Below, one piece after another: positions 14,480 to 60,441 of a stretch of DNA of 64,000 bases. Position 1 is the stretch's first letter, and each line of letters begins with the position of its first letter. The position numbers and the translations under genes were made by a program. A model generated the notes under the pieces. It saw only the letters and a program-made list of their open reading frames with translations. It did no database searches and was not told the DNA's origin. This DNA is from Patescibacteria group bacterium (GTDB taxonomy: Bacteria > Patescibacteriota > Patescibacteriia > Magasanikbacterales > UBA922). The stretch lies in assembly GCA_041651535.1 (NCBI GenBank), contig JBAZIZ010000002.1:82059-146058 (forward strand), given 5' to 3'.

Positions 14480-17400
14480 TTATGTTTTAATTTTTTTATT
14501 TTTATGGTTGTAATAATACAATAAAAACAATGAAAAAGCAATCGGCAATACAGTCTTCCAATCTAAATATTTTTTCCAAGTTGCAGCTGGATAAAGTTGA
14601 ATATTTTCAAAAATTGCATCATTAATATCTACTGTAAAATACTCGCCTCGATAATTTTTGTAACCTTTAGCCTTGGCTTCTAAATAATACTCACCTGGAG
14701 TAACTAAGAAAGAATAATCGCCAGTAACTCCGACTGTTTGTGGATTTATTTGTTGATATTTTGTAGCATTCCATAATTCAAATTCTCCGCTAGTTTCATT
14801 TTTTCGATAAAGAGAAACGACAGACCCTTTGACACGCATTTCTTTTTCACCAACTTTTTCATAAACATAACCTTCTGGATCAACAACTGTTAAAAGTCTA
14901 ATTTGTTTTCGTCCAAGTTCAGAATCAATATAATCAAAAACTGTAATAATTTCATATTCACCATCTTTTACTGGGATATCCACAAAAGCTGTATAAATTC
15001 CGTCACTATCAGGATCAGTATATTCAAATTCTTTTAAAACTAATCTTTCTTCAACTGGAATTTCTTTTTCAGCTGTTTCAGCAAAGACAGCTTCTCCAGC
15101 AAAAATATCTGATAAAATTTTATTTAGATTTGAACCAGCAGTTACAGCACTTTTAGCTTGGACAATTCCACTATTTTTATAAACAACATAACCTTTGACT
15201 GAATTTACTTTTGCTTGTGGTTTAACTATGAGTTCAACTGTCGTTCCAGAAATAGTATTAATTTTTTGAATTGGACGTCCGTTTTCATTTATAGCAACTT
15301 TTGTATTTAAATCTAAATCAGCCAAAGCATTTTTTACAAACATTATTTCTGTTGGAATTTGTTTCTTTTCTTCTTCGGATAATTTTGCTAAAGGCAATGA
15401 ATAAGAGAAAAATTCTCCTGTATCTAATTTTGAAGGATCTAAATCAATATTAAATGATGAACTTGAGTTTTCTAAATTTGTAATTTTAATATCTCCGTAT
15501 TTTACAGAACCAGTTGAAGAAATGACTGGGATATTAATTTCAGCAACTCTATTTAAAATAGTAGATGATAAACTAGGTAAAACAAAATTTATATTTTTCA
15601 TTTTGATCATATCAGTCATACGAGCTACACCAGTTTCAGTTAAAGTTGTAGAAAATTCAGGGAATTTTTCTGCTAACAAACGAACTTCGTTTGGTAATGG
15701 AGCTAAAATGAATTTTTTTACTGGAAATAAATTCCATCTTATTTCAAACGCAATTGGAGTAATCTGTGGTACAGCATCAACTAAAGGAATATTTACTGTT
15801 TCAGTTTCTGGCTCTTTTAACCAATCAGAAATTTTATCAACAATATCTTTTATTAATGGCAAATCTGTTATTTCTCCTAAAATTTCAACTCCTAATTCTT
15901 TTGCTTTTAACCATAGATCAGTTTCTTCTGTATTTTTTTCTTCTTCGATAAAATCTTCTTCATTTTCTTTTTCTTCATCATTAATTATATTTTCATTATC
16001 AACATTTACAATCAAAGAATTTTCTTTACCCAAATTTTGAGCTTGATCTTTTGCTTTTACTATTAAAGAATATTTTCCAAATGGTAAATAATTTAAATCT
16101 AAATTCCACTTTCCTTCATTGTCCGCAGAAATTTGTTTTTCACCAGCACCATCAATTTTTACAAAAATCAAACTATTAGCTTCAGTCAAACCAGAAATTT
16201 TAATTTTTTCATGAATACTGTAGCTACTTTTGTAATCAGTAAACGAGATGCTAGGTGGAGTGGTGTCTAAAATAATAGAATTAAAATATGTTTCTGAAGA
16301 TAAACCGCCAACTCTACCAAAAAATCTGACATAAACTTTTTTTAAACCATCACCACCACTTAAAATCCAATCTTTTACTTCAGCAAAACTTTCTTGTGGA
16401 ATTTGATCAAAAGAAATATCATTAGCTATTGCCATATCACTAACATCATTTCCAGCGCTTAAATTTAATTGAACATTTTTATTATTTGTGTATAAAGCTC
16501 CATTATTTATTTTTATACCTAAATTATCTGTACTTGGTCTAACATAGTTAAAAGAAGAACTTCCATCACCACCAAAACTAGGACAAGACTCGGTAGAAAA
16601 ACTATTATTTGCTGACCAACCAGATTCAACATTTTCAAAATTACGAGTTTTAATACGGAAAGAATAATTTACTCCACAAGATAAATTGGATATATTCCAA
16701 ACTGTTGTTGTTGTCCAACCAGAATTAGTTGTAGTTGAATTTATTTCTTCAATATAATATTCAGTACCACTAGGATTATCTCCAGCTGACCAATTTAAAG
16801 TCATTGAATTTTGTGTTGTCGAAGTAGCAGTTATCAAATCTGGAATTTCAGCTAAAGTATAAACAGCAGTGGAAGTTGCAGAAGCTTCTGATCTACCTCT
16901 ACTAGAATTAGCAGCATAAACTTTTACAGAATAAATTGTATTTGGTAATAAATCTTCAACTATAAAACTAGTATTAGTTACATTTATATTTTCAATATCT
17001 TCATGTTCTCCTTCAACAAATTCTAAAACAAATTCTTCAGCAAAATTACTATTATTTATCCAATTAAAGGTAATTGAATTATCTAAAATTGCTGATGGAG
17101 TATTTATAGTTGGAGCTAAAAGTCCTGTATAAATTACAGCGCTTGCTAAATTTTCTGATTCACCAATTTTATTAACACCACGAATACGATATTCATAAGC
17201 AGAATTTACACTGACTACTGTATCACTTAATGAAGAATTAGCATTAGTTGTTGTTGCTAAAACAGACCAAGAATTAAATCCAGAACCATAATTAACTCTT
17301 TTTTCAATCACAAAAGATTTACTATAAATATCTGTTGATAACCATGATAAATCAATCTGTGAATCACTTATATATTCAGCTGAAAAACTATTTGGAATTG

Positions 17401-20400
17401 ACGGCATTACACACAAACCAGTTTCCAAAGTAGATGTTACTGTCCAATCAGTTTCGACATTATCATGATTGCGAGCTTTAATAATATAATCATATGAAGT
17501 TTCACAATCCAAATTATTATCTGTCCAAGAATTATTTGTTATCCACTCACTTTCATCTCCAGTTGTAATATTTTTTACTTTATATTCTGTACTAGAAGGA
17601 TTAGAATTTTGATTCCAATTTAAAGTCAAAGTTTCATCAGTATTTGTAGAAACTTGTATATCAGTTGGTAAAGCAGCAAAAGTATACAAAAGAGTTGAAG
17701 TGTTTGAAGCAGGACTATATCCTCTATCTGATCTCCAAGTATATAAAACAATTTGATAACCAGTATTTGGAGTAAGATCATTAACTGTAAAACTATCACT
17801 AGAAGAATTGATATTTATATAATCTAGATGATTTGAACTAGTAAAATGTAATCTAAATTCAGTTGAAAATAATGCTGAAGAAGTCCAATCCCAAACCATT
17901 GAATTGGCTGACAAAACAGTACTGGTTGTTATTACTGGAGCAGGTAAAGAAGTATAAACTACATTAGAATAAACATAATCACTATTTCCATAAATATTTC
18001 CAGAGTAAACTCTATATTCATAACGTTTATTTCCTGCAGTATTGATATCAGAAAGAATTACAGCATTAGGTGATGTAGTTGCCAAAGTTGTCCAAGAACC
18101 AAAACCACTACCAGTCGTATCTGATCTTTTTTCGACAACATAGTAATCTTCAGCTGAAGAATTATCTGTCCAACTAATGTTAATTTGATTATCAGAAATA
18201 TAACTAGCCAAAACATTTAAAGGCAAATTTGGAGCCGCAATAATTTCTATTGAATCATAACCTGATGCTCCAGAATTTTGGGCAGTAAGAATGACATTAT
18301 TTAAATCATATAAATTATTTATCGATAAATTACCATACCAAATTCCATCATCAGTAAAATCAGATTGGGCAATACTATTTACACTTAAAGAACCGACACT
18401 AGCGGTCAAAGAAGTATTTCCACTTACTTGTTTAGTTATATTATTATAAATATCTCGAGCATAAATAATTGTCTCAAAAGCTAAATCAATTGAAGAAGTG
18501 GCTGGAATAGCGACTAAGAAATTATTTAAAGTTCCCGCAACAGCTGTAAGATTTAAATTATAAGAAGGGTGCGTATAAGAAGTATGAAGTCCATCAGTTG
18601 CTCGTAATAAAACAGTCTCTGCACGATATGGTGTAAAATTACACTGTCCAACTCCATCAACAAAATTTATAGTAGTAATAAGTCCAATATTAACTGGATT
18701 GCCACTTTTGTTTGTACAAGTTGCCTGTACACCAGTCAAAGAATTCGATGGGCCAGTTAAAATAATACTTTTGTCTCCATCATAATCAGTTATTATATTA
18801 TTTTCACCATCACGAATTGTCAAAGTTATAGTTTGAGATTCACCAACATTTTGTGTGTTTGATCCCGTCACAACTAAATGAGTTTCACTAGTTTGAGTTT
18901 GGTCAAAATCTGATAATAATTCAACATTACTAGCAGTTGCTGGAACATGAGATTTTATTCTAAATAAATAAGTTAATGTAGTTGAAGGAATAGTAAAATT
19001 ATAACTTTCTACATTAGCACCGACAGTATTTGTGCCTGGTGTAACTTCGGTAAAATGTTCAGCTGAATCATCAGAATACTCTATTCTAAAACCATCTTCA
19101 TAACTTGAGTTATCATCCCAATAAATATAGATAATATTTTCTTCAGTTTTTATAGCATTAACTCCACTTGGAGCTGCTGGTTTTGTATATTCATAATTTG
19201 AATAAGCAACTGCAGATACAGTACTTCCAGAAGAAGCTGGCGGTTTTACAGTAAAAGCATAACGATAACGATTATTTACATCTATATTTAAATTATCTGT
19301 ATAATTTATAGTTCCAGTAACAGTTTGACTTGGGATAAGTAAAATTGGAGTTGTTGTTATTGCACTAAAACTATTTGTGCTACAAGCTGCTCCATCACAA
19401 CGTTTTAAATCAAAATAATTTGTTACTAAAGCATTATCAACGAAGGTAATATCAAATCTATTATCTGAATATCTAACAGGACTGATAAAAGTTGGAGCTG
19501 TTGGAGTTGTATAAATACCACCTAAAGAATTTATTGGATCTTCAGCATAATCTGAATTAGCAAAACTTCCAATCGTACGTACTCGATATTTATATCTTCT
19601 ATTTGCAACTGTGCTGTAATCAGTATAACTATGAATATTTGTATTAACTTGAGCAACAAAAATCCATGAACCAAAACCAGAACCTTCGTCAACTTGACGT
19701 TCTATCGCATAACCACTTTCAATTGTAGAATTATCTGACCAACTTAAAGTAATTGATTCATTAGAATTACGAACTGAACTAACAGAAGTTGGGGCGTTTG
19801 GAACTCCTAAAACAGTGATATAAGCATTACCATAAATCGTTGTCGAAGAATAACTGTCAAATCCTCTAAATTCTACATTGACTGCTGGTCTTTCTATAAT
19901 ACTTGAAATAACTAAACTAATTGTAGCGATACCATTTTCAAACGAACTATCAAGAATTTGAAGTGGTGAAACAGAACCAGTAGAAACACTAACAGTAGTG
20001 GTGTTAAAAATTAAAGTTGTTGTATTATTCCAAAAATCTTGGGCAATAAGTCTAACAGTTGAAGGAACTGTTGATACTGCTTGTGTTGGTGCAGACACAC
20101 TAAATTTTCTAGCTACATTTGGTTCAACTTTTAAATCCAAATCATAGGCAGGACTTGAAGTTGAAGAAAATGAATCATCATAAACATCAATAGTTGTAGT
20201 AACAGCATTATATAAAGTTGTACTACAAGTAGCAGCGCCATTTATAAATGAAACTGTAGTATTTTCACCAAACATAATATTATTACCATCTTTATCACTA
20301 CAATATAAAGTTGGTTGTGTTCCATCACTAATAAATTTTAAAATTCTGTTACCCGTAAAATATGAAGCATTATTGCCGTTTACATCTCTTAAAGCAATTT

Positions 20401-23400
20401 GCAGAGCAGTCACTACACCTGCTGTAGTTGTAGCTGGAGCATAAATTTCAAAATGTAAATCAGAAATTTCAGCAATCGCTTCATTTGAATAACTAGAAAA
20501 TAATTCACTATTATTTGCAGTTTCTCCGATATGAGCTCTGACTCGATATTTATAGGTATTTGAAGAAGTTGAAGAAACAGTATGTAAATAAGTTCTGATA
20601 TTTTGTCCAGTTTGATCGTTGCCAGAATCTATTTCATTCCACGAACCACTATTTATTGATTCTTCTATTCTAAATCCGCTTTCAAACAAAGAATTATCCA
20701 CCCAACTTATTTGAACTTGGGTTTCATTTACTATTGCAGAAATTACAGAAGATGGAGCAACTGGAGTTGTATATTCATAAATAGAATAAGAATCATCAGA
20801 ATAAATTCCATCACTAGTTTTTGCTTTGACATTATATAAAAATCTGTTATTTGTTGTTATTTGGTAAGTATCACTATATGGTGAAGAAACAGAATAAAAA
20901 GAATTTGATTCATTACTTGTAAAATAATAATCACTACGGAAAATTCTATGTTCATTTGTAATTCCAGTTTGTGAAGTATAATAAACTGAAAATTGGCTGG
21001 AACTTATTCTTTTAGCATAAACATTTATTGGGGCATCAGGTTTTGTAAAATGATAATTAACTTCTGTTGCCCAATCAGAATAACCAATTGAATTAAATCC
21101 TCTAACTCGATATTTTATTTTACTATCTAACGAAACAGAATAATCTCGTGTATTATGAATATTAGCTGAGGTTGTAGTAGCTAAAGACCAATCACCTTCA
21201 GCACAACTAGCTCCAGAACTTGCTAAAACACATTTTTGAATTTCATAACCTGTTTCTACAACTGAATTATCACTCCAACCGATACTGAAATAGGATCCTT
21301 CTTCATCAGAATTCAAAGATGATGCCACACCACTTGGTTTATTTGGAATACCAATCACAGTTAAATAAATTTCACCATTTGCTGAACCGTTATTTACATA
21401 AAGATAAACTGTATTTCTGTCATTTATATTTGATAAAGTCACACTACCTTCCCAAATTCCATCATCAGTAAAATCAGCTTCCGCAATTCCAACCGGACTA
21501 ATGTCACCAATACTAGAACTTATATAAGTATTACCAAGCACAGCAGTTGTCGTATTTAAATATTCATCAAAAGCAGTAACACTTAAAGTAAAAGGAATTG
21601 TTGAAGTCACGGTAGACTGTTGGCTAGAAATAGTAAAACTATCAACTGATGCTGGATCAACTGAGACTCGAAGTTGATAAGAATTATTTTCTGCAGTTGA
21701 ATATGCTAATGTATCGGCATCAATATTATAAGAACCAACTGCTGGTAAAAACATATTTATTTCTGCTTCTCCATTTATAAAATTGATTGAAGTTATTGAA
21801 CCAAAATCAATTTGTTCACCATTAAAATTAATAACTGTTGGCTCAACTCCAGTAATTGATGAAGATGCTCCAGAAAAATAAACATTTTTTTCACCATTAT
21901 AATCACTGACAATATTTCCTCCGCTATCTTTTAAAGCCAAAGTAACTGTGGTTGTAGTTCCGGCTGTAGTTGTAATATCATTTAACGGAGAAAATTCAAA
22001 ATGATAACTTTGTGGTGAAAATACTTCTGTATATTCAGAAAATACTTCTGGAGCAAAAGTGTTTCCAGCAATATGAGATCGAACTCTAAATTGATAATCA
22101 TTGTTTAAATCTACATCAACTAAATCATAAGTTGTAATATTTGCTCCAACAGTATTAGTACTAGTAGTTATTTCACTCCATCCCCCACCATTTATTGAAA
22201 CTTCAATTCTAAATCCATCTTCATAATTTGAATCATCGTCCCAACTTAAACTAATTACAGTAGAGGTACTAAAAATTGCTGCTTGATTTATTGGTTTATT
22301 TGGTTGAGTATAAACATATTCTGTTCCACCAACATAACTTGAATACAAAGCTCCGTTACGCACTGTAGCTGAAATAGCTGAACGCATTTTGAAACGATAA
22401 GCATTATCAGGAGTAGAACTTGCAAAAGAAAAACCAGTCATATCAGCACCAACAGTTGTAATACCATTATTATAAATAGGAGTAAAAACACTAGAAGAAG
22501 CTACAGCATATTCAAGTAAATAACCTGATTCATAAAGTGCGTTATCAGTCCAAACAAATGAAATAGTATTTGATGTTGCTTCAGAAGCATAAAAAGCAGA
22601 AGGTGCTGCTGGTGAAGTAAATTCATAAGCTGAATATACATCACTAGAAATCAAACTTTCTGGAGATGGAGTTTCTGAATGAGAAACATATTTATAACGA
22701 TTATTAGCTAACAAACTTGCAGTGTCCGCATAAGGAGAAGAAGATGACTTACCTAAAAAATTAAAAGTTGAAGAATCACAACCTGCACTATCACAACGAG
22801 AAAAAACATGAGTATTTATAACATTAGCATTGTCTGTAAAATACAAATTAAATCTATTGTCATTTACATAAGTCGCATAAAAATTTGTCGGATAATCTGG
22901 TGTAGTATAATGAATTAAATTATCACTAGCTCCATAAGAAGAAACGATACTACCTGACGCAATTATTTGATACATATAACGACGATCAGCTTGTGGAGCA
23001 TCAAGCGGATTATTTGTGGCATTATCTACAAAACTTTGTGTATTAGTGGAAAGTGTCGCAATAGTTACCCATGTGCCTGGCAAACCTGAACCAGTATCTG
23101 TTTTTTTCTGAACTAAATAACCTGTTTCAATAGTACTTCTGTCTTGCCAAGTAATTTCAAATTCATTATCACTAATATAAGAAACTGCAACTGAACCAGG
23201 TGTGTTTGGTCTACCATTAAATAAAAATGAATCACTACCATTTGCTGAACCATTTACAGCCGTAATTACTACTGTTGGATTTTCATAAATATCAGTAACT
23301 GTTATATTACCTGCCCAAATTCCATCATCAGTAAAATTTGTAGCACTAATTATTGCTGGATTTATAGTTCCAGTTAAAACAGAATTTACATAAAGAGAAA

Positions 23401-26400
23401 GATTTGTATTTCCAGAAACACTCAAAGTATTATTATAATATGTGTCTAAAGCATAAACAGTGATCATTGTTGAGGAATTATAATTTATAGTTGCTGGAGC
23501 ATCAATCAAAAATCTATTCAAAGAATTTCCCACAACTGTAACTCCAAGAGAATAGCTATTATCAGCATTAGTTGAATAAAAATTATCTGTCACTTCTAAA
23601 ACAGCGTTTTCTGCTCGATATAAAATTAAATTACAAGAAGCAACACCGTTTGTAAAAGTAATTGTAGTTGTATTACCAAAAACAATTGGGCTATTATTTT
23701 TATCACTACAAGTTGGTACTATACCATTTACAGAAGAAGATGCTCCACTAAAAAATAATTCCTTATCACCAGACCAAAAAGTAGAAGTATTACCATTTAA
23801 ATCTTTTAAAATAATAGAAATAGTTTGTGAATTTCCAGCAATCTGACTACTATTACCTTTTATTTCATAATGAAAATCAGTTGATAAAACTTGTGAGCCG
23901 GCGCTATCACCACTATATAATTCAGAATTATTATCAGTTGCTGAAATGTAAGCTCGAACTTTAAATTGTAAATCATTTTGACTTGTTGGTGAAGAAAATA
24001 AATAAGTTTTTACATTTTGTCCGACTGTGGCTCCAGATATTACTGGTTCAAAATTTGAACCACCATCATAACTTACCTGAATTTCAAAACCATTTTCATA
24101 AGTTGAATTATCTTTCCAAGATAAAAACCATTGATTTGAACTAACTTGATAAAATTTTAAATCTGATGGTGTAGCTGGAGCTGTATATTCATAAGCTGAA
24201 TAAGCAAATGTGGAAGAAACATTAATAATTTCAGTTGCTGGAGCATCTGGAGGAACTATTGCTTTTACTCGATAACGATATCTACTATTACCTGACAAAC
24301 TTGTATCCAAAGTAGAAGTTCCATAAAGAGAAGAAGAAACACTAGAAAAAATATTACTAGCGCAAGAAATTCCCACACATCTATCAAGAGAAAAATAATC
24401 ACTTACTGCTGAATTATCTGTAAAAGTTAAATCAAATTTTAATGGTGAAGAATTATAAGTCGCGAGTAAATTACTTGGAGTACCAGGAACAGTATAATGA
24501 GCTACTGGATCACTGCCATAAGAAACTGAATAACCAACTGAATTAAAAGATCTAACACGATATTTATATCTTTCATTGCTTTGTGGAGGATCAATAATGT
24601 TATTTGCTACATTATCAATAAAACTATTGGTAGCTTGGGTTGTCGTTGCAATTGCTACCCAATTATTTCCAAAACCACTTCCTGTATCAGTATCTCTTTC
24701 TACCACAAAACCACTAGCAACTCCGCCAGAAGTATCACTCCAAGTTATTCTAAAAGAATTTAACGCAAAATAACTTGCAGCAACACCAGAAGGGGCAGTG
24801 GGAATTCCAACAGCTGACAAAAATACACTGCTTGTTGTAATGTTCCCATCATAATCATTATAATAATCAATTCTCAAAGTTTCTAAATTTGTTACGTTAT
24901 TAATCGTAAAATAAGTTTCTGCTAAACCATCATCAGTAAATTCACTAGATGAAACAATTGTTGGGCTAATAGACGCAAAAGTATCAACTGTGCTAGTGAC
25001 TGAAACTTGTGTGTCACTATTTACATAATTTGTTATATTTCCAAAAGCATCTTTAGAAATACTATCAATCGTAAAAGGAATACCAGAGATAACATTTGCT
25101 GATGATGATAAAATAAATTCATTTAAAATTTGAGAACCTACTGTCACTATTAAAGCATAATCATTGGAACCAGAAGTATTAAAATTATTTCCCGAAACAT
25201 CTATTTGAACTGTCTCATTTTTATAAAGTTTAAGAGTCGTTGTCGCTTCCCCATTTATAAAATTTAAAGTGGTAGTAGAACCAAAATTTCTATTATTTTC
25301 AAAGATATCTTTTGCTGTCGGACGATCAGAATATGGACTATTGTTTGCTCCATAAAAAATAATATCGTAATTTCCATTATAGGTACTACTGACTGAACCA
25401 AATTCATCAATCAAAAATATAGAAATAACCAAATCTTCTCCGGCAGTTACACTAGCAGAAGAAGCTCCTGATTTTCTCACTTCATAATGAGGAGGCGCAG
25501 TGACAAAAGTAAAATTTATATTATTACCACTATCGACACAACCATTAATACATAAAACTGCCGAACTATTGAAATTTACTATATCTTTGACATCCAAAAA
25601 TTCTACTGCTCTAGCGCCAGCAAAATCTATATTTGCTTGAGTACCACTGACTGTAGAATGTAAGCTGAGTAAATTGTTTGGAATTCCAGATAAATTTGCC
25701 GAACCTTCGATTTTTATATCTGAGCCAGCAGTAACATATAAAATTTGAGAGGAAGTAACAGTTTTTGTTAAATCATTGAAAACGATAAATCCACCGATAG
25801 TTTGAACTTCACCATTTAAAATCACTAAACCAGAATTAGCATCAAAAATACCTGGAGATAACATCAAAATATTTCCACCTACATATAAAGTAGTAGAAGG
25901 AGCGATAAAATTTCCATTACTACCTTCGAGATTATTATAAATAGAAAAAGAATCCGTAGCTTCATACAAAGGATTAACACTGACCAAATCAGAAATTTCA
26001 CTGACAGGTAAAACACGATAATAAAAAGCTACATCGTCTAAAATACCACTGAAATAATACTGTCCATCTATACGACTTCCTAATCTAGTCAAAGAAAAAG
26101 GAGTAAGTCCAGTAGAAGAAAGACATTGTTCTACTAAAATACCATCACGATAAATTTTCCAATCAACATTACTACCAGTAACATTTATTGTCGAAGTATA
26201 ATGATGCCAACCAGTAGTAAGATTTGTATTACAAGTAATTTGATTAGAAGAAGCATCTCTCAAAGAATTATACAATGTTCCACCAATGTTACTAAAAAAA
26301 TAATCATAAACAGAACCACCAGCAATCGGGACCTGAGTGTTTGAAAGATTAGAATAATTTATCCAAGCAGACACAGAAAATGTTTTATCCAATTCACCAT

Positions 26401-29400
26401 GACTTGCTGAAACATAATCATCTACTCCATCAAAACTTAATCCAAAATTATTTTTTCCAGCTACCCAAGTAGGAGCTAAACTACCAGCGCCTAAAGTCCC
26501 ATGTCTTCCGTTGCCAGATAAATCATTGATTGTGTTTCCACTTCCTTCATCCATGTTCCAATAACTAAGTAGCCCAGATTTTAAATTTCCGGCTAACTTT
26601 TTAACATCTTCAGCTTTGATCGCTTTATTATAAATTTTTACTTCATCTAGAACACCTTTATAAGCACGAGCGCTAGAATAAGCAGAATATCCAAAATATA
26701 AATTACTGGATGCACAAGTATATTTAGACCAAGTGTAGCTACCAGCCAAAACACCGTCAATATACAGACTCATATATCTACCATCATAAGTACCGACCAT
26801 ATGATGCCAATTATTATCAGTTACAACTCCTTTTATGAGACTATAATATCCCACTCCCCAACCACCGCTGTTATCTCCTACTGTATAAGTAATAGTTTTT
26901 GCTGTTTTTTCTTTCAACCCAATAGCCCAACCTGCCAAACCATAATCAGGACCAAATTTTTCAATAAGTGTTGGGTAATCATTTGCTTGTGTACCAGCTT
27001 TCATCCAAAATTCTACGGAAAAATTAGCTGTACAAAAATAATTACTAGCTCCAAAATTTACAAAATCACTACCATCAAAAGAAACAGCTGAGCCAGATTT
27101 TCCACTTGTCCAAGTCGGCGCTGAACCACCAGTACCAAAAACTCCATTCATGCCATTACCTGATTGATCATAAACTGTAGTTCCATTACCTTCGTCCATA
27201 CTCCAATAAGCAATCAAATTATCATTCATATCCCCGACTGTATTAAAAATATCATCACCATCTGTAAAATTTATTTTTAAATTATAATAATAAGGAAATA
27301 AAGTATCATAAAAAGTAGCTAAGCCATCATTATTTCCCACATAAGAAACAGTACCAGAATCAGTATCATTTACTAAATTTGTATATTCATTACCAGCGAC
27401 GTCTAGAGTACCTTCATTAAAAAAATTTGTTGGAGAAGATAAAATCAAAGTATTAGAATTTAAAAACAAAGTTCCATCTTCATTTATTTGTAAATAACCA
27501 TTTACTGTCAAACTAGAATTATTTAAACGAAAAATAGAACCTTCTATACCATTTATTATCATATTACCCACACTACTTGCTGATAAAATATTATAAGTAC
27601 CTGTGTTTGTCCTATAATATTCAACGATACTATTATTAGCAAATTGCGGATAACCGGTATTAAAAGAATAAGTAGCACCGCTCATAAGACGAAGTCTGGC
27701 ATCATTAGCAACTATAAAAGTTGATCCGCTTCCTGTCACTCTAAGACTTTTATCTGATAAATCAAAAGTACCAGAATTTAAAAGTAGATTTTTTGAATTA
27801 TCCATTGTCAAATCTGATAAAAGAAGCAAAGACCCGCCTGTTTTATTTATTCTAATTTCTCCATCAAGACTTGAAACTACGGTATTTAAATTTATATTTT
27901 GTTCATTATCTCCAGAAAAAGTAATAAGTGGTTGAATAAAACCATCAGTAATTTCTAAATTTCCTCTGAGATTTAAATTGGAAACAGTGTTATCTCCATA
28001 AATATATCCTTTACTGATCAAAGTATCACCATATATATTTACAGTATCACTACCAGCAATTTGTAGATAATAAGAATTGCTAGATTTATTGAGTTTAAAA
28101 TTATAAAAATTTATAGACGAAACTACATCTAAAGTCGTATAACTACTTCCTCTAAAATCTACCGTTCCAATCCCTGGATCAAAAATACCACCAGTATGAG
28201 TGAAATTATTATAAAAATAAGCATTACCTTGCGGGGCGTTGAAAATTCCACCAGACAAAGTAAAAAGAGAATTAAAATATAAATTATGAGATCCAAAAGT
28301 AGCAGTTCCATTTGAATGAGTGTAAGAACCAGCAAAATTCCAATTGGTATTAGTAGTGCTTAAATTTCCGCCGGATTGAAAAGAGGCTGTACTAAATTGC
28401 AATTGTCCACCTTGCCCAATGTAATGAGTATTTCCAGCAGTAGTTTCAATAGTATAAGCATAGGTAGTGGCACTTGGACCATAAACAGTGGTAGATGCCC
28501 CAGCAAAAACAAGACGAGGTAAGTATGTTCCACCAGCAATAGACAATGTTTGCGATCCTGTGCCTGCTAAAAGTAATTGCACTATATTTCTCGCACTTGG
28601 AGTTATATATGTTGATTCTACCACTACATCACCTCTTGCTTCCAAAGCTGAATAAGTATTTCCTCCATAAAGCCAGCCGATATTTTTAAGCGTAGTTGTC
28701 CCAGTGACAACTATCCTATCATTATCATCTATTCGTAAATGATAACCAGCATATGATTTATTTAAAACAAAATTATTGAAAGTGACTGAATTTCCAGTAG
28801 TTGCTACTACATTGATATTCTGATCAACAGTAGATCCCACAAAATGCACTGTTCCACTTCCTCCACCAAAGACACCGCCAGTATGAGTGAAATTATTATA
28901 AAAATAAGCATTGCCTTGTGGGGCGTTGAAAATTCCACCAGACAAAGTAAAAAGAGAATTAAAATATAAATTATGAGATCCAAAAGTAGCAGTTCCATTT
29001 GAATGAGTGTAAGAACCAGCAAAATTCCAATTGGTATTAGTAGTGCTTAAATTTCCGCCGGATTGAAAAGAGGCTGTACTAAATTGCAATTGTCCACCTT
29101 GCCCAATGTAATGAGTATTTCCAGCAGTAGTTTCAATAGTATAAGCATAGGTAGTGGCACTTGGACCATAAACAGTGGTAGATGCCCCAGCAAAAACAAG
29201 ACGAGGTAAGTATGTTCCACCAGCAATAGACAATGTTTGCGATCCTGTGCCTGCTAAAAGTAATTGCACTGTATTTCTCGCACTTGGAGTTATATATGTT
29301 GATTCTACCACTACATCACCTCTTGCTTCCAAAGCTGAATAAGTATTTCCTCCATAAAGCCAGCCGACATTTTTAAGCGTAGTTGTCCCAGTGACAACTA

Positions 29401-31474
29401 TCCTATCATTATCATCTATTCGTAAATAATAACTAGCATATGATTTATTTAAAACAAAATTATTGAAAGTGACTGAATTTCCAGTAGTTGCTACTACATT
29501 GATATTCTGATCAACAGTAGATCCCGCAAAATGCACTGTTCCACTTCCTCCATCAAAAACACCACCAGTATGCGTGAAATTATGATAAAAATAGGCGTTG
29601 CCCTCTGAAGAATAAAAAGTCCCACCAGATAAAGTAAAAACATTACTAAAATAAATATTACCTTCAGGGGCATTGAATATTCCACCAGACAAAGTAAAAG
29701 TAGAAGCAAAAGTGATATTTCCTAAGCCAAAAGTAGAAATACCGTTTGAATGAGTATAAGTACTACCAAAATACCAATTTGTATTGGTAGTAGTCAGGTT
29801 TCCGCCTGATTGTAGTGAAGGACCACTCATCTGAAGTTGTCCACCTTGTCCGATATAGTGAGTATTTCCTGATATTGTCTCAAAAGTATAAGCATAGGCA
29901 GCCGCTTCTGGACCATAAACTGTGGTAGATACTCCAGAAAAAATCAATCGTGGTATATAAGTAGCACTGGCAATATTGACTGTTTGTGGTCCTGTACCAG
30001 CAATATTTAATCTAAAACTATTTCTTCCATAAGAATAATTATGGGTTGATTCTATCACCACATCACCTCTAGCTTCTAAATTTGAATTAGCATCACCACC
30101 ATATAAATAACCTCTTCTTAAAGTAGTAGTGCCATTAACTATCAGTTTGTCAGCCGAAGAAATTGTTAAATAATAACTAGTATCATTTTGATTTAAAATA
30201 AAATTATTGAATGTAACAGTATTTCCGCTAGAAGCTGCAATATTAAAAGTTGTATTAATTCCTCTAAAATGTGCAGTTCCAATTCCTCCATCAAAGATAC
30301 CTCCAGTGTGAGTAAAATTACTATCAAAATATGTATTTGTCTCAGAAGCGGTAAATGTTCCTCCAGATAAAGTAAAAGTAGAATAAAAAATAACATTTCC
30401 CACACCAAAAGTAGAAGTTCCATTGGAGTGAGTATAAGAACTACCAAAATACCAATTAGTATTCGTAGTTGTCAGATTGCCCCCAGACTGAAGTGATGGA
30501 CCACTCATCTGCAACTGTCCACCTTGTCCAATATAGTGAGTATTTCCTGATATTGTCTCAAAAGTATAAGCATAGGCAGCCGCTTCTGGACCATAAACTG
30601 TGGTAGATACTCCAGAAAAAATCAATCGTGGTATATAAGTAGCACTGGCAATATTGACTGTTTGTGGTCCTGTACCAGCAATATTTAATCTAAAACTATT
30701 TCTTCCATAAGAATAATTATGGGTTGATTCTATCACCACATCACCTCTAGCTTCTAAATTTGAATTAGCATCACCACCATATAAATAACCTCTTCTTAAA
30801 GTAGTAGTGCCATTAACTATCAGTTTGTCAGCCGAAGAAATTGTTAAATAATAACTAGTATCATTTTGATTTAAAATAAAATTATTGAATGTAACAGTAT
30901 TTCCGCTAGAAGCTGCAATATTAAAAGTTGTATTAATTCCTCTAAAATGTGCAGTTCCAATTCCTCCATCAAAGATACCTCCAGTGTGAGTAAAATTACT
31001 ATCAAAATATGTTGTTCCTTGTGAAGCATTGAAAGTACCACCAGATAAAGTAAAAGTAGAAGCAAAAGAAATATTTCCTAAACCACCATTGAAAACACCG
31101 TTTGATTGGGAAAAAGTACCACTAAGAGAAAAAGTATAACCGCTTTCACGAGTAATAGTTCCAGTGTAACCAGAAGAAATTGTAAAACTATTTAAATTGA
31201 CATTGGCATCTATAGAACAATCAGCTGTAGCTGTACCATTAAAAACAACAAGATCGCCAGTTCCAGGAGTACCTACAGGAGACCAGTTATTACTATTTGT
31301 CCAGAGTCCATCTCCTCCACTGTTTGTCCAAGTGTAAGTTGTGCCCGCAGCAAAAGATTGCCAAGTTACAAAAGCACCAATAAATACTAAAAACAAAAAA
31401 AATGTCCAAGGGTGTTTGGAAAAAAAGCTTAATGATTTTGTTAAGTTTTTCAATGAAAAACGTTTCTTTTTCAT
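14480..31474 (-). CDS. Giant (5664 aa) cell-surface protein: signal peptide, 4-5 tandem ~226-229-aa Gly/Thr/Asn-rich beta-repeats, two LamG/concanavalin-like lectin domains, ~5 large FN3/Ig-like repeat modules, CarbopepD_reg-like domain, C-terminal TM anchor
   Basis: Uninterrupted 17-kb ORF; N-term MKKKRF...FLFLVFIGAFVTWQSFA; LamG-like 'LIAYWSMDEGNGTTVYDQSGNGMNGV...NWHHMVGTYDG' twice; repeated 'TAPSxV/L...W.D.S..E.GF.IE' FN3-like units; C-term WKKYLDWKTVLPIAFSLFLLYYY. Confidence 0.85.
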   Translation of the reverse strand: MKKKRFSLKNLTKSLSFFSKHPWTFFLFLVFIGAFVTWQSFAAGTTYTWTNSGGDGLWTNSNNWSPVGTPGTGDLVVFNGTATADCSIDANVNLNSFTISSGYTGTITRESGYTFSLSGTFSQSNGVFNGGLGNISFASTFTLSGGTFNASQGTTYFDSNFTHTGGIFDGGIGTAHFRGINTTFNIAASSGNTVTFNNFILNQNDTSYYLTISSADKLIVNGTTTLRRGYLYGGDANSNLEARGDVVIESTHNYSYGRNSFRLNIAGTGPQTVNIASATYIPRLIFSGVSTTVYGPEAAAYAYTFETISGNTHYIGQGGQLQMSGPSLQSGGNLTTTNTNWYFGSSYTHSNGTSTFGVGNVIFYSTFTLSGGTFTASETNTYFDSNFTHTGGIFDGGIGTAHFRGINTTFNIAASSGNTVTFNNFILNQNDTSYYLTISSADKLIVNGTTTLRRGYLYGGDANSNLEARGDVVIESTHNYSYGRNSFRLNIAGTGPQTVNIASATYIPRLIFSGVSTTVYGPEAAAYAYTFETISGNTHYIGQGGQLQMSGPSLQSGGNLTTTNTNWYFGSTYTHSNGISTFGLGNITFASTFTLSGGIFNAPEGNIYFSNVFTLSGGTFYSSEGNAYFYHNFTHTGGVFDGGSGTVHFAGSTVDQNINVVATTGNSVTFNNFVLNKSYASYYLRIDDNDRIVVTGTTTLKNVGWLYGGNTYSALEARGDVVVESTYITPSARNTVQLLLAGTGSQTLSIAGGTYLPRLVFAGASTTVYGPSATTYAYTIETTAGNTHYIGQGGQLQFSTASFQSGGNLSTTNTNWNFAGSYTHSNGTATFGSHNLYFNSLFTLSGGIFNAPQGNAYFYNNFTHTGGVFGGGSGTVHFVGSTVDQNINVVATTGNSVTFNNFVLNKSYAGYHLRIDDNDRIVVTGTTTLKNIGWLYGGNTYSALEARGDVVVESTYITPSARNIVQLLLAGTGSQTLSIAGGTYLPRLVFAGASTTVYGPSATTYAYTIETTAGNTHYIGQGGQLQFSTASFQSGGNLSTTNTNWNFAGSYTHSNGTATFGSHNLYFNSLFTLSGGIFNAPQGNAYFYNNFTHTGGIFDPGIGTVDFRGSSYTTLDVVSSINFYNFKLNKSSNSYYLQIAGSDTVNIYGDTLISKGYIYGDNTVSNLNLRGNLEITDGFIQPLITFSGDNEQNINLNTVVSSLDGEIRINKTGGSLLLLSDLTMDNSKNLLLNSGTFDLSDKSLRVTGSGSTFIVANDARLRLMSGATYSFNTGYPQFANNSIVEYYRTNTGTYNILSASSVGNMIINGIEGSIFRLNNSSLTVNGYLQINEDGTLFLNSNTLILSSPTNFFNEGTLDVAGNEYTNLVNDTDSGTVSYVGNNDGLATFYDTLFPYYYNLKINFTDGDDIFNTVGDMNDNLIAYWSMDEGNGTTVYDQSGNGMNGVFGTGGSAPTWTSGKSGSAVSFDGSDFVNFGASNYFCTANFSVEFWMKAGTQANDYPTLIEKFGPDYGLAGWAIGLKEKTAKTITYTVGDNSGGWGVGYYSLIKGVVTDNNWHHMVGTYDGRYMSLYIDGVLAGSYTWSKYTCASSNLYFGYSAYSSARAYKGVLDEVKIYNKAIKAEDVKKLAGNLKSGLLSYWNMDEGSGNTINDLSGNGRHGTLGAGSLAPTWVAGKNNFGLSFDGVDDYVSASHGELDKTFSVSAWINYSNLSNTQVPIAGGSVYDYFFSNIGGTLYNSLRDASSNQITCNTNLTTGWHHYTSTINVTGSNVDWKIYRDGILVEQCLSSTGLTPFSLTRLGSRIDGQYYFSGILDDVAFYYRVLPVSEISDLVSVNPLYEATDSFSIYNNLEGSNGNFIAPSTTLYVGGNILMLSPGIFDANSGLVILNGEVQTIGGFIVFNDLTKTVTSSQILYVTAGSDIKIEGSANLSGIPNNLLSLHSTVSGTQANIDFAGARAVEFLDVKDIVNFNSSAVLCINGCVDSGNNINFTFVTAPPHYEVRKSGASSASVTAGEDLVISIFLIDEFGSVSSTYNGNYDIIFYGANNSPYSDRPTAKDIFENNRNFGSTTTLNFINGEATTTLKLYKNETVQIDVSGNNFNTSGSNDYALIVTVGSQILNEFILSSSANVISGIPFTIDSISKDAFGNITNYVNSDTQVSVTSTVDTFASISPTIVSSSEFTDDGLAETYFTINNVTNLETLRIDYYNDYDGNITTSSVFLSAVGIPTAPSGVAASYFALNSFRITWSDTSGGVASGFVVERDTDTGSGFGNNWVAIATTTQATNSFIDNVANNIIDPPQSNERYKYRVRSFNSVGYSVSYGSDPVAHYTVPGTPSNLLATYNSSPLKFDLTFTDNSAVSDYFSLDRCVGISCASNIFSSVSSSLYGTSTLDTSLSGNSRYRYRVKAIVPPDAPATEIINVSSTFAYSAYEYTAPATPSDLKFYQVSSNQWFLSWKDNSTYENGFEIQVSYDGGSNFEPVISGATVGQNVKTYLFSSPTSQNDLQFKVRAYISATDNNSELYSGDSAGSQVLSTDFHYEIKGNSSQIAGNSQTISIILKDLNGNTSTFWSGDKELFFSGASSSVNGIVPTCSDKNNSPIVFGNTTTITFTNGVASCNLILYRAENAVLEVTDNFYSTNADNSYSLGVTVVGNSLNRFLIDAPATINYNSSTMITVYALDTYYNNTLSVSGNTNLSLYVNSVLTGTINPAIISATNFTDDGIWAGNITVTDIYENPTVVITAVNGSANGSDSFLFNGRPNTPGSVAVSYISDNEFEITWQDRSTIETGYLVQKKTDTGSGLPGTWVTIATLSTNTQSFVDNATNNPLDAPQADRRYMYQIIASGSIVSSYGASDNLIHYTTPDYPTNFYATYVNDNRFNLYFTDNANVINTHVFSRCDSAGCDSSTFNFLGKSSSSPYADTASLLANNRYKYVSHSETPSPESLISSDVYSAYEFTSPAAPSAFYASEATSNTISFVWTDNALYESGYLLEYAVASSSVFTPIYNNGITTVGADMTGFSFASSTPDNAYRFKMRSAISATVRNGALYSSYVGGTEYVYTQPNKPINQAAIFSTSTVISLSWDDDSNYEDGFRIEVSINGGGWSEITTSTNTVGANITTYDLVDVDLNNDYQFRVRSHIAGNTFAPEVFSEYTEVFSPQSYHFEFSPLNDITTTAGTTTTVTLALKDSGGNIVSDYNGEKNVYFSGASSSITGVEPTVINFNGEQIDFGSITSINFINGEAEINMFLPAVGSYNIDADTLAYSTAENNSYQLRVSVDPASVDSFTISSQQSTVTSTIPFTLSVTAFDEYLNTTTAVLGNTYISSSIGDISPVGIAEADFTDDGIWEGSVTLSNINDRNTVYLYVNNGSANGEIYLTVIGIPNKPSGVASSLNSDEEGSYFSIGWSDNSVVETGYEIQKCVLASSGASCAEGDWSLATTTSANIHNTRDYSVSLDSKIKYRVRGFNSIGYSDWATEVNYHFTKPDAPINVYAKRISSSQFSVYYTSQTGITNEHRIFRSDYYFTSNESNSFYSVSSPYSDTYQITTNNRFLYNVKAKTSDGIYSDDSYSIYEYTTPVAPSSVISAIVNETQVQISWVDNSLFESGFRIEESINSGSWNEIDSGNDQTGQNIRTYLHTVSSTSSNTYKYRVRAHIGETANNSELFSSYSNEAIAEISDLHFEIYAPATTTAGVVTALQIALRDVNGNNASYFTGNRILKFISDGTQPTLYCSDKDGNNIMFGENTTVSFINGAATCSTTLYNAVTTTIDVYDDSFSSTSSPAYDLDLKVEPNVARKFSVSAPTQAVSTVPSTVRLIAQDFWNNTTTLIFNTTTVSVSTGSVSPLQILDSSFENGIATISLVISSIIERPAVNVEFRGFDSYSSTTIYGNAYITVLGVPNAPTSVSSVRNSNESITLSWSDNSTIESGYAIERQVDEGSGFGSWIFVAQVNTNIHSYTDYSTVANRRYKYRVRTIGSFANSDYAEDPINSLGGIYTTPTAPTFISPVRYSDNRFDITFVDNALVTNYFDLKRCDGAACSTNSFSAITTTPILLIPSQTVTGTINYTDNLNIDVNNRYRYAFTVKPPASSGSTVSAVAYSNYEYTKPAAPSGVNAIKTEENIIYIYWDDNSSYEDGFRIEYSDDSAEHFTEVTPGTNTVGANVESYNFTIPSTTLTYLFRIKSHVPATASNVELLSDFDQTQTSETHLVVTGSNTQNVGESQTITLTIRDGENNIITDYDGDKSIILTGPSNSLTGVQATCTNKSGNPVNIGLITTINFVDGVGQCNFTPYRAETVLLRATDGLHTSYTHPSYNLNLTAVAGTLNNFLVAIPATSSIDLAFETIIYARDIYNNITKQVSGNTSLTASVGSLSVNSIAQSDFTDDGIWYGNLSINNLYDLNNVILTAQNSGASGYDSIEIIAAPNLPLNVLASYISDNQINISWTDNSSAEDYYVVEKRSDTTGSGFGSWTTLATTSPNAVILSDINTAGNKRYEYRVYSGNIYGNSDYVYSNVVYTSLPAPVITTSTVLSANSMVWDWTSSALFSTEFRLHFTSSNHLDYININSSSDSFTVNDLTPNTGYQIVLYTWRSDRGYSPASNTSTLLYTFAALPTDIQVSTNTDETLTLNWNQNSNPSSTEYKVKNITTGDESEWITNNSWTDNNLDCETSYDYIIKARNHDNVETDWTVTSTLETGLCVMPSIPNSFSAEYISDSQIDLSWLSTDIYSKSFVIEKRVNYGSGFNSWSVLATTTNANSSLSDTVVSVNSAYEYRIRGVNKIGESENLASAVIYTGLLAPTINTPSAILDNSITFNWINNSNFAEEFVLEFVEGEHEDIENINVTNTSFIVEDLLPNTIYSVKVYAANSSRGRSEASATSTAVYTLAEIPDLITATSTTQNSMTLNWSAGDNPSGTEYYIEEINSTTTNSGWTTTTVWNISNLSCGVNYSFRIKTRNFENVESGWSANNSFSTESCPSFGGDGSSSFNYVRPSTDNLGIKINNGALYTNNKNVQLNLSAGNDVSDMAIANDISFDQIPQESFAEVKDWILSGGDGLKKVYVRFFGRVGGLSSETYFNSIILDTTPPSISFTDYKSSYSIHEKIKISGLTEANSLIFVKIDGAGEKQISADNEGKWNLDLNYLPFGKYSLIVKAKDQAQNLGKENSLIVNVDNENIINDEEKENEEDFIEEEKNTEETDLWLKAKELGVEILGEITDLPLIKDIVDKISDWLKEPETETVNIPLVDAVPQITPIAFEIRWNLFPVKKFILAPLPNEVRLLAEKFPEFSTTLTETGVARMTDMIKMKNINFVLPSLSSTILNRVAEINIPVISSTGSVKYGDIKITNLENSSSSFNIDLDPSKLDTGEFFSYSLPLAKLSEEEKKQIPTEIMFVKNALADLDLNTKVAINENGRPIQKINTISGTTVELIVKPQAKVNSVKGYVVYKNSGIVQAKSAVTAGSNLNKILSDIFAGEAVFAETAEKEIPVEERLVLKEFEYTDPDSDGIYTAFVDIPVKDGEYEIITVFDYIDSELGRKQIRLLTVVDPEGYVYEKVGEKEMRVKGSVVSLYRKNETSGEFELWNATKYQQINPQTVGVTGDYSFLVTPGEYYLEAKAKGYKNYRGEYFTVDINDAIFENIQLYPAATWKKYLDWKTVLPIAFSLFLLYYYNHKNKKIKT
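28190..31150. repeat. Intragenic tandem direct repeats: two perfect 678-bp units (~29790-31145) and two near-perfect 687-bp units (~28190-29563), plus a diverged fifth unit
   Basis: Identical strings recur with periods of 678 bp ('ccactcatct' at 29823 and 30501) and 687 bp ('gtatgagtga' at 28194 and 28881; 'gtatgcgtga' at 29568); mirrored as identical 226-aa protein repeats. Confidence 0.85.
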
Positions 31475-31711
31475 TTTAAATTATTTTTGTTTTTTACAAG
31501 TAAATTATAACATTTTTTTGATTTATTGCCAAACTTTTTTTACTATTTACTTGTTGATAAACCAAGCAAAAATTAATTTTAAAAAAATATTCAAAAAAAT
31601 TTACTTTTTCTTTTAATTTTTATGTTTATTTTTTTGTTTTTGTTTCCCTTCCCTACTGGAAGGTGGGGTTATTTTAAATTCAACAATTAAAAGAATTAGA
31701 AACATTTAAGA

Positions 31712-31917
31712 GATTTCTTCAACCCGATTAAATCGGGATTACGAAATTACAAAAGATTATGTTAGTATTTTTTAAATCATTTTTTTAATAAAATTATCCA
31801 AATAAATAAAAACGTTTTAAAAATAATTGCACTCTCACTTTGTCATATCGTAGCCCCGACGAAACGTCGGGATGGAGACGAAGAATCGCTTAAACAATGA
31901 ATTATTAATTATTTTAA
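31712..31917. repeat. MITE-like structured repeat unit A (imperfect inverted halves each carrying a GC hairpin: CCCGAT-taa-ATCGGG / CCCCGACG-aaa-CGTCGGG)
   Basis: Left half 'GATTTCTTCAACCCGATTAAATCGGGATTACGAAATTACAAAAG' and right half 'ACTTTGTCATATCGTAGCCCCGACGAAACGTCGGGATGGAGACGAAGAATC' are reverse-complement-related; same architecture recurs in units B and C. Confidence 0.65.
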
Positions 31918-31998
31918 ATACAAAAGTTAATAACTATTTAAAATTTTATTTTTATTTTATCTTATATTGCTAAAATATAATTATTATAAAATTTTTTT

Positions 31999-32301
31999 AT
32001 GAAAAAAATTTACAGATTTTTTATTTATATCTTAGCTAGTGATTCAGGAACACTTTATGTTGGTTTGACTAATAATATATATAGAAGAATAGAAGAACAT
32101 AAAACTAAAGCAAATAAAAAAAGTTTTTCTAAAAAATATAATTGTTATAAATTAGTTTATTTTGAAGAACATAAGTATGTAAATAACGCAATAAATAGAG
32201 AGAAAGAGATAAAAGACTGGAACAGAAAGAAAAAAGAAGAACTTACCAAAAAATTTAACCCACATTGGATTGATTTATACGATAAAATAGATTTAATTTA
32301 G
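31999..32301 (+). CDS. GIY-YIG nuclease superfamily protein (YhbQ/UPF0213-like, 100 aa)
   Basis: 'YRFFIYILASDSGTLYVGLTNNIYRRIEEHKTK...YKLVYFEEH...AINREKEIKDW' matches the GIY-(10-11)-YVG, R, E and N motifs of small GIY-YIG proteins. Confidence 0.75.
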   Translation: MKKIYRFFIYILASDSGTLYVGLTNNIYRRIEEHKTKANKKSFSKKYNCYKLVYFEEHKYVNNAINREKEIKDWNRKKKEELTKKFNPHWIDLYDKIDLI

Positions 32302-32317
32302 TTAAAGATTGTTTAAG

Positions 32318-32515
32318 GGATTTCTTCGTCCCGATTAAATCGGGACTACGAAATGACAAAATGTATGGGAAGTTTTTTAAAGACGTTTAAAGATAATTGA
32401 ATAAAGAAATTAAATAGACAAACTAAAAAACAATCACACTCTAACTTTGTCATATCGTAGCCCCGACGAAACGTCGGGATGGAGACGAAGGATCCCTTAG
32501 ACAATGAATTATCAC
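32318..32515. repeat. MITE-like structured repeat unit B (near-identical to unit A)
   Basis: 'GGGATTTCTTCGTCCCGATTAAATCGGGACTACGAAATGACAAAATG' ... 'ACTTTGTCATATCGTAGCCCCGACGAAACGTCGGGATGGAGACGAAGGATCCC'. Confidence 0.65.
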
Positions 32516-60082: not shown

Positions 60083-60198
60083 AAAAACACAAAAGGCTCT
60101 CCATGCAATGGTGATCTCTTACGAGACCCAGTAACCTTTCGGTTAAAGACTGGATAAACAATACCAAAGATGAGAGAGCCATCTCTATGTTTATCCAG
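60083..60198 (-). ncRNA. Candidate structured leader/sRNA with pseudoknot-like interleaved stems and terminal U-tract (attenuator or riboswitch-like) upstream of the Ltp gene
   Basis: GC-rich island; GGCTCTC(60095)/GAGAGCC(60174) and CTGGATAAACA(60150)/TGTTTATCCAG(60188) are interleaved; nested CCAGT-AACC-tttc-GGTT-ACTGG; on the minus strand the closing helix is followed by UUUUGUGUUUUU. Confidence 0.3.
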
Positions 60199-60441
60199 TT
60201 TTAGACCATGCCCACAAAGCGAGTTTAGGTCTTTAAATTGTTGCTTATATTCTAGCAAAATATTTTTTAAAAAGCAAGGTAAAAAACAAAAAAACACCTG
60301 TAAAAAAAGTATTTTATTTATTATGGACAAATTATAATTATTATATTGACAATAAAAATTATATTGTGTATAGTTTATATACAAACGGCTTCGGCCTCCG
60401 AGACCCTGTTTTCCTCTTATGGATCACAGGGATCGTTTTTT

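Follow-up and report, generated by a model that had tools for sequence, protein, structure and literature searches.

In-frame tandem repeats with recent identity tracts in a giant gene of a Patescibacteria bacterium, encoding units of a predicted beta-helix

Introduction

Periscope proteins (SasG/Aap, Rib/alpha C, Sgo0707) are surface proteins of variable length in which autonomous repeats of 50-165 residues, usually in many copies, form a rod-like stalk leading from the wall anchor to an N-terminal functional domain (PMC9704523). Concerted evolution of intragenic repeats, through gene conversion and unequal crossing-over, has been experimentally demonstrated in cultured pathogens, for example in the streptococcal M protein and in the size variation of the alpha C protein, as far as these are presented through refs 12-13 of PMC9704523. 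Very large genes for membrane-anchored, extracellular proteins with repeated domains and a predicted role in adhesion are described from Omnitrophota, where repeats fragment the assemblies (bioRxiv 10.1101/2023.11.21.568195). Here, a tandem array is described from a stretch of 64,000 nucleotides (nt) of a Patescibacteria group bacterium (assembly GCA_041651535.1, contig JBAZIZ010000002.1, positions 82,059 to 146,058), which is called the window throughout. The array falls within the 5′ part of a giant gene on the minus strand, the predicted product of which has 5,664 amino acids (aa). With a probability of about 0.8, it is a genuine in-frame array of four units of 226-249 aa and a diverged terminal unit, in which the old beta-helix scaffold of a giant surface protein from the candidate phyla radiation (CPR) was recently homogenised by recombination.

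Like the Periscope proteins, the giant protein would be a single-chain, surface-anchored protein, judged by a signal peptide, a C-terminal hydrophobic helix and extracellular-type domains in its sequence. Its tandem repeats are likewise in frame and of very high DNA identity (99.0% over 675 nt in one pair; 100% over 482 nt in the other, within 678-nt units of 94% identity), homologous recombination is proposed for the change of repeat number, and short-read assemblies fail on the repeats. Unlike in the Periscope proteins, there are just two near-identical pairs, and the repeats are segments of a predicted beta-helix at the distal N-terminal end in place of autonomous stalk domains of 50-165 residues below an N-terminal head. 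By analogy, the array would work like Periscope-type repeats without being filed as a member of that class. Mosaic tracts of identity in older repeats, greater similarity within than between genomes and a unit number that differs among relatives are shared with the M and alpha C protein repeats as these are represented in PMC9704523; unlike there, the evidence here is comparative only and comes from metagenome assemblies. The properties listed above for the Omnitrophota giant genes also appear to be shared by this gene, which differs from them in size (5.7 against more than 30 thousand aa), in its set of parallel beta-helix, LamG and fn3/Ig domains and in belonging to another phylum. The array is an ordinary kind of feature and behaves as recombining repeats within surface-protein genes do. 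A search of the literature for the accessions of the sample and of the protein gave no result.

Results

Units and identity tracts of the array

Positions of the giant open reading frame (ORF), the units (U1 to U5) and the tracts of identity in the window.
14480-31474, minus strand: giant ORF, 5,664 aa (MFA5211145.1 at NCBI, "LamG-like jellyroll fold domain-containing protein")
30398-31075, minus strand: U1, aa 134-359, 226 aa, placed by motif anchors and self-shift profiles
29720-30397, minus strand: U2, aa 360-585, 226 aa, placed by motif anchors and self-shift profiles
28973-29719, minus strand: U3, aa 586-834, 249 aa, with one additional 20-aa coil at its start
28286-28972, minus strand: U4, aa 835-1063, 229 aa, 93% aa identity to U3
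27599-28285, minus strand: U5, diverged terminal unit at aa 1064-1292, sharing 35-39% aa identity with U1-U4
30531-31012, minus strand: 482-nt exact tract, copy 1, in U1
29853-30334, minus strand: 482-nt exact tract, copy 2, in U2
28878-29552, minus strand: 675-nt tract, copy 1, the C-terminal 193 aa of U3 and the first 32 aa of U4
28191-28865, minus strand: 675-nt tract, copy 2, the C-terminal 193 aa of U4 and the first 32 aa of U5

The giant ORF is uninterrupted across its 5,664 codons, and the unit starts are spaced by 678, 747 and 687 nt, each divisible by 3, so that the frame is kept from unit to unit. An original prediction for this stretch had placed an in-frame tandem array at 28190-31150. 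The frame agrees with the single minus-strand ORF and with spacings that are multiples of 3; the further diverged unit that was also predicted is present as U5 and lies mostly just below the lower of these two positions. The predicted near-perfect 687-bp pair was recovered as the 675-nt tract, the two copies of which, at a shift of 687 nt, have 7 mismatches (99.0% identity; positions 28226, 28232, 28584, 28681, 28741, 28747 and 28839) and a longest exact run of 351 nt (28233-28583); the first 32 codons of U5 are part of this tract. The other pair had been called perfect over 678 bp, and here the prediction went too far. U1 and U2 are exact over 482 nt alone and differ at 41 of 678 sites as whole units (94% nt and 95.6% aa identity), with 71-84% identity outside the exact tract, which is bordered by the diverged flanks 29690-29852 and 30335-30530.

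When the 41 differences were placed at random on 678 sites, a gap of 482 nt arose in none of 100,000 placements (p < 1e-5). In shuffled windows, exact direct repeats reached no more than 16-18 nt, and the longest one outside the array in the real window measures 90 nt. Since shuffling yields only such short exact repeats, the identity within the array is not due to chance. Tandem Repeats Finder was silent at the array, the longest period it handles being 500. A functional element on the plus strand was rejected, as no plus-strand ORF of at least 150 aa overlaps the array.

Old units and recent tracts

Synonymous (dS) and non-synonymous (dN) divergence, Nei-Gojobori estimates from codon-level comparison.
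Codons 134-154, U1/U2 N-terminal flank: dS 0.74, dN 0.27
Codons 155-315 (161 codons), U1/U2 exact tract: dS 0.009, dN 0
Codons 316-359, U1/U2 C-terminal flank: dS 1.04, dN 0.04
Codons 606-641, codons adjoining the tract of the 687 pair: dS 0.81, dN 0.16
Codons 642-866, tract of the 687 pair: dS 0.019, dN 0.010

The dS of the flanks matches the divergence of U1/U2 from U3/U4 (dS about 0.9, dN about 0.27), and in codons 316-340 of the U1/U2 comparison there are 12 synonymous and no non-synonymous codon differences. Because flank dS equals between-unit dS, the units are old and under purifying selection, and the identity tracts are recent overlays on them. The contrast between the tracts (dS 0.009 and 0.019) and the adjoining codons (0.74-1.04) bears out the suggestion that the high identity reflects very recent duplication or gene conversion.

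The two tracts point to different events. In U1 and U2, a block of near-zero dS that is shorter than the unit has old divergence on both sides; since it is shorter than the period and has old flanks on either side in both units, the 482-nt tract indicates gene conversion and not whole-unit duplication. The 675-nt tract is out of register with the structural units and within about 2% of one period. As its length is close to one period of 687 nt, it would most simply be read as the duplication of a single unit through unequal exchange or slippage, with a long conversion as the other candidate. The codon differences in this tract (5 non-synonymous, 3 synonymous) would fit very young changes that have not been filtered.

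Two other causes were considered and rejected. GC-biased gene conversion was put forward for the G+C content of the array, 36% against 28%; the excess lies in second codon positions (the units are rich in Gly, Thr, Ser and Ala), and GC3 in the U1/U2 tract is 0.118, equal to that of other genes. A diversity-generating retroelement or a phase-variation cassette was dismissed, as the scanned neighbours include neither a reverse transcriptase nor an invertase.

Breakpoints in an independent assembly

The outer boundaries of the tracts were compared with an independent assembly (ENA, MEGAHIT k141, ERZ27247363), in which the strain matches the window at 100% identity; the read set SRR8542065 also appears to contain the strain. 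A contig of 64,057 bp stops at window position 30872, exactly 141 nt within the 482-nt tract, and a contig of 132,687 bp begins at 28373, exactly 141 nt within the 351-nt exact run.

Stretch between the two contigs.
28373-30872, no strand: missing from both flanking MEGAHIT k141 contigs

These contig ends are branch points of the de Bruijn graph. Breaks that lie k nt within the tracts require two sequence contexts at 31012/31013 and at 28232/28233, and therefore the repeat is real and no invention of the assembler. The outer tract boundaries are confirmed in this way, and the interior, 28373-30872, is not crossed by short reads. The array had also been flagged as a classic site for assembly collapse. 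As a hazard this is visible at either end of the gap, where the contigs break 141 nt inside an exact tract. Since the copy number comes from a single assembly and short-read assemblers break at the edges, the first ~1,100 residues of MFA5211145.1, the protein of the metagenome-assembled genome (MAG), are best treated as provisional.

Turnover of units among relatives

The closest relative is a contig from the Joint Genome Institute (JGI), L044, which has five full units and a terminal unit with periods of 692-776 nt, as compared with four and one here. It carries perfect patches of its own (3792-4064 = 4556-4829) within units of 90.6% identity. Among themselves, U1-U4 share 61-96% identity, as opposed to only 38-54% with any unit of L044, and positional orthology between the two arrays is confined to the terminal unit (U5 and L044 segment f). 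Because the units are more similar within than between genomes and do not correspond by position, concerted evolution, or independent turnover of units, would have taken place in the lineages of the window and of L044. The array had been proposed as a substrate for copy-number variation; the support gained is indirect and consists in the different unit numbers of the two orthologues.

When 1.84 billion representatives were searched exhaustively with the profile, 302 proteins were obtained at E <= 1e-3, and the best 150 of them are mostly 1,000-4,000 aa long with 2-13 matched stretches each. A scan of species-representative genomes returned 43 loci of 25-55% identity from CPR groups, Bacteroidota, Acidobacteriota, Planctomycetota, Omnitrophota and others. 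In four distant loci of other phyla (L005, L006, L013, L014) the matched region is itself tandem, with a period of 600-780 nt and 92-100% DNA identity. A Pfam scan of four relatives left the repeat without annotation in all four and found a type IX secretion system (T9SS) sorting domain in one. A word-indexed protein search returned none for one unit and three fragments for the unit profile; this index evidently misses the gene, although the collection contains it. The ~226-aa beta-helix super-repeat, which has no curated family and occurs in about 300 representative proteins from several phyla, often in tandem, could merit definition as a family.

Orthologous N-terminal fragments were seen on two further contigs, L051 7154-7935 (JGI contig Ga0116171_10009592) and L045 (a contig of 1,159 nt), with 53% and 60% identity, respectively. 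Both contigs stop within the first repeat unit, which would fit repeat-driven assembly breaks in further lineages. A metagenome scan with the N-terminal 134 aa gave L051 as the sole locus; the end of its contig, ~400 nt past the N-terminal region, is suggestive of a repeat break, though not conclusive. A separate array was noted in an Omnitrophota MAG contig (CAVYLG010000003.1, L041 16430-20210). Its period is 315 nt at 99.9% identity, and it continues for 3.8 kb or more, up to where the fetched locus ends. The beta-helix match is several kb away, so that this repeat is another one, and a far more homogeneous one.

Predicted fold of the units

AlphaFold2 predicted a single unit as all-beta with short, regular strands (predicted local distance difference test, pLDDT, 68; predicted template modelling score, pTM, 0.72) and two units with 53 short strands (pLDDT 75.5, pTM 0.74). 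The prediction agrees with a right-handed, pectin-lyase-like parallel beta-helix, a solenoid of stacked three-stranded coils of ~20-25 residues, and each unit is predicted to form ~9-10 coils. A parallel beta-helix rises by 4.8 Å per coil. With ~9-10 coils, one unit may thus add roughly 4-5 nm to a rod, and the units probably stack into one rod at the end farthest from the C-terminal membrane anchor. Searches of the repeat region against Pfam, NCBIfam and PDB sequences gave no significant match (sub-threshold or spurious hits, or none).

Beta-helix adhesins and passengers (the autotransporters UpaB and Hap, TpsA/EtpA, Tapirin and the SRRP of L. reuteri) and phage tailspikes share just 5-16% sequence identity with the array. 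Compared with those adhesins, the giant protein has no beta-barrel translocator, its anchor being a C-terminal transmembrane (TM) helix in a Patescibacteria envelope, and its helix is composed of a ~226-aa super-repeat.

Architecture of the giant protein

From the N- to the C-terminus, the giant protein consists of a signal peptide, the beta-helix repeats, two LamG domains, repeated Ig-like/fn3 modules, Big_13, a CarboxypepD_reg-like domain and a TM helix.

Features outside the array.
31346-31474, minus strand: signal peptide region, aa 1-43, with hydrophobic core WTFFLFLVFIGAFVTW followed by SFA/AG (sequence reading)
31076-31345, minus strand: non-repeated cap at the N-terminal end of the beta-helix region, aa 44-133
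26600-27076, minus strand: Laminin_G_3 (concanavalin-like) domain 1, aa 1467-1625
about 26572 and below, minus strand: second LamG domain, from about aa 1635
14510-14554, minus strand: C-terminal hydrophobic helix TVLPIAFSLFLLYYY (aa 5641-5655) ahead of a basic tail; putative membrane anchor

The signal peptide, the LamG, fn3 and Big_13 domains and the C-terminal hydrophobic helix suggest that the giant protein is a C-terminally anchored surface protein with the beta-helix at its distal end, both the topology and the function being conditional on this interpretation of the parts. The final ~25 residues of the cap are already similar to the 20-aa coil motif (repeat family copy 30944-31118). The start at the ATG at 31474 is backed by conservation in orthologues, as two orthologous fragments keep the upstream N-terminus; L044 is 90.6% identical to aa 5-89 of the giant protein, and the N-terminus of P0002 also begins MKKKRFSLKNL. 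The NCBI record MFA5211145.1 has 5,638 aa, with a start 26 codons downstream of this ATG, and the JGI call has 5,664 aa. Since the residues upstream of it (MKKKRFSLKNL...) are kept in orthologous fragments, NCBI has probably placed the start too far downstream, where it cuts into the signal peptide (window 31397-31474).

The middle of the protein (window 18300-25500) is made up of Ig-like and fn3 modules of ~1.55-1.6 kb (520-535 aa). These keep just 60-80% DNA identity in short patches, which speaks for no homogenisation there, unlike in the N-terminal array.

Discussion

The observations would be explained by the following course of events. Old units, with synonymous sites near saturation, would have formed the starting scaffold, and homologous recombination between adjacent units would recently have overwritten parts of it. 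A conversion tract of 482 nt would have made U1 and U2 identical across 161 codons, and the tract that is close to one period in length (675 nt, 99%) and ties U3/U4 to U4/U5 would most simply result from a one-unit duplication through unequal exchange or slippage. The same process may alter the number of units over evolutionary time and keep the units within a genome more alike, as in concerted evolution. The identity of 482-675 nt makes RecA dependence plausible, judged by what is generally known of repeat recombination; radA and recG are within the window and recA is not.

If both identical tracts were very recent whole-unit tandem duplications, formed without gene conversion, identity over the full 678 nt would be expected between U1 and U2. 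The tract measures 482 nt, and its flanks (dS 0.74-1.04) are as old as the divergence of U1 from U3; the array of L044 is equally patchy. Whole-unit duplication would account for the 675-nt tract, which is within 2% of the 687-nt period, and for the unit number that differs from the orthologue. The codon divergence disfavours it for the 678 pair, and as the origin of both tracts it appears very unlikely. The array might instead be partly a product of assembly, with a collapsed or wrong copy number, or with copies homogenised by consensus building or polishing and their identity overstated. The k141 short-read assembly breaks at both edges, a single assembly spans the array, the exact tracts of 482 and 351 nt are longer than typical reads, and fragmentation of giant genes by repeats is a documented problem (bioRxiv 10.1101/2023.11.21.568195). 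An origin of this kind is nevertheless doubtful: the breakpoints match the repeat boundaries predicted from the window, which makes these boundaries real, along with two or more contexts; the copies can still be told apart, by 7 differences in the 687 pair and by the diverged flanks of the 678 pair, unlike in a collapsed consensus; and the ORF is intact over its 5,664 codons.

Several points weigh against a genuine array that was homogenised by recent recombination. The number and order of interior units in 28373-30872 come from one assembly, the JGI/NCBI contig of 186,920 bp. Polishing might have removed true differences in the 482-nt tract, of which the second assembly covers just the outer 141 nt, and the 5:3 ratio of non-synonymous to synonymous differences in the 675-nt tract is compatible with consensus errors too. 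L044 is frameshifted many times, as in a noisy assembly, and its unit count was taken from motif spacing and the spacing of high-scoring segment pairs. The structure models are of moderate confidence and were built on 4-8 sequences, and a Foldseek search with the two-unit model against the PDB gave no significant match.

A further possibility is that the array serves as a selected, rapidly switching device for length or antigen variation in the style of the Periscope proteins, with a unit number that varies within the population and tunes the reach of an adhesin tip or allows escape. Neighbouring units of high DNA identity, changes that stay in frame, an orthologue with another unit number, similar behaviour of relatives from several phyla and the definition of the Periscope class by such repeats (PMC9704523) would all agree with it. 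Such a device is unlikely here, however, as only two pairs are near-identical and there is no long homogeneous array, the repeats lie at the distal N-terminus and not in a stalk between anchor and functional head, and recombination among repeats occurs without a selected role. It is a still less probable conjecture that the beta-helix array makes contact with the host as the tip of an adhesin of episymbiotic Patescibacteria, varying in unit number and mosaic structure in natural populations through frequent intragenic recombination, and that the unannotated ~226-aa super-repeat is a widespread recombination-prone module used likewise across many uncultured phyla. If true, the reach or binding surface of an adhesin could change heritably and reversibly.

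Under the preferred reading, in which an old scaffold was recently homogenised by recombination, the locus offers a clean worked example of concerted evolution in a surface-protein gene of an uncultivated CPR bacterium, combining an old scaffold with a conversion tract that can be dated and, probably, with the duplication of one unit. The current understanding of such repeats is left unchanged. The practical value lies mainly in the caveat for assemblies and in the pointer to an uncurated family of beta-helix super-repeats.

Other features of the window

The window is AT-rich chromosomal DNA (25-36% G+C) with housekeeping genes, among them pheST, a Clp ATPase, recG, radA, a phosphomannomutase/phosphoglucomutase-type enzyme and a DEAD-box helicase. 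Directly upstream of the giant gene (window 31705-32512) lies a GIY-YIG ORF of 100 aa (31999-32301, plus strand), flanked by two relatively GC-rich direct repeats of ~200 nt (31705-31905 and 32312-32512) that are 81-92% identical at a spacing of 607. Each repeat has the hairpins CCCGATTAAATCGGG and CCCCGACGAAACGTCGGG; a search of the repeats against Rfam gave no family match. The ORF and its repeats could be a small mobile element or a structured-RNA element.

A second, smaller intragenic repeat was seen at window 1445-1837, in ORF 1064-2062 (minus strand), which encodes a 332-aa protein with only a weak match to DUF7006. An exact direct repeat of 90 nt is located at 1445 and 1697, and copies of 126 nt with 72-88% identity are located at 1460, 1613 and 1712. 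At 4334-7519 (minus strand), a protein of 1,061 aa with acidic double-disulfide repeats (NF033662, 100.8 bits) and CarboxypepD_reg domains is probably another large extracellular repeat protein near the giant gene.

A 574-aa protein at 49514-51238 (plus strand) has a VanY D-Ala-D-Ala carboxypeptidase domain and a sub-threshold match to T4SS_pilin (24.7 vs 26.6 bits); RadA (51222-52571, plus strand) and RecG (52711-54828, minus strand) follow directly downstream. A LOOT RNA (Rfam RF03000) was identified at 60113-60231 on the minus strand, with 70.9 bits against a gathering score of 46.4.

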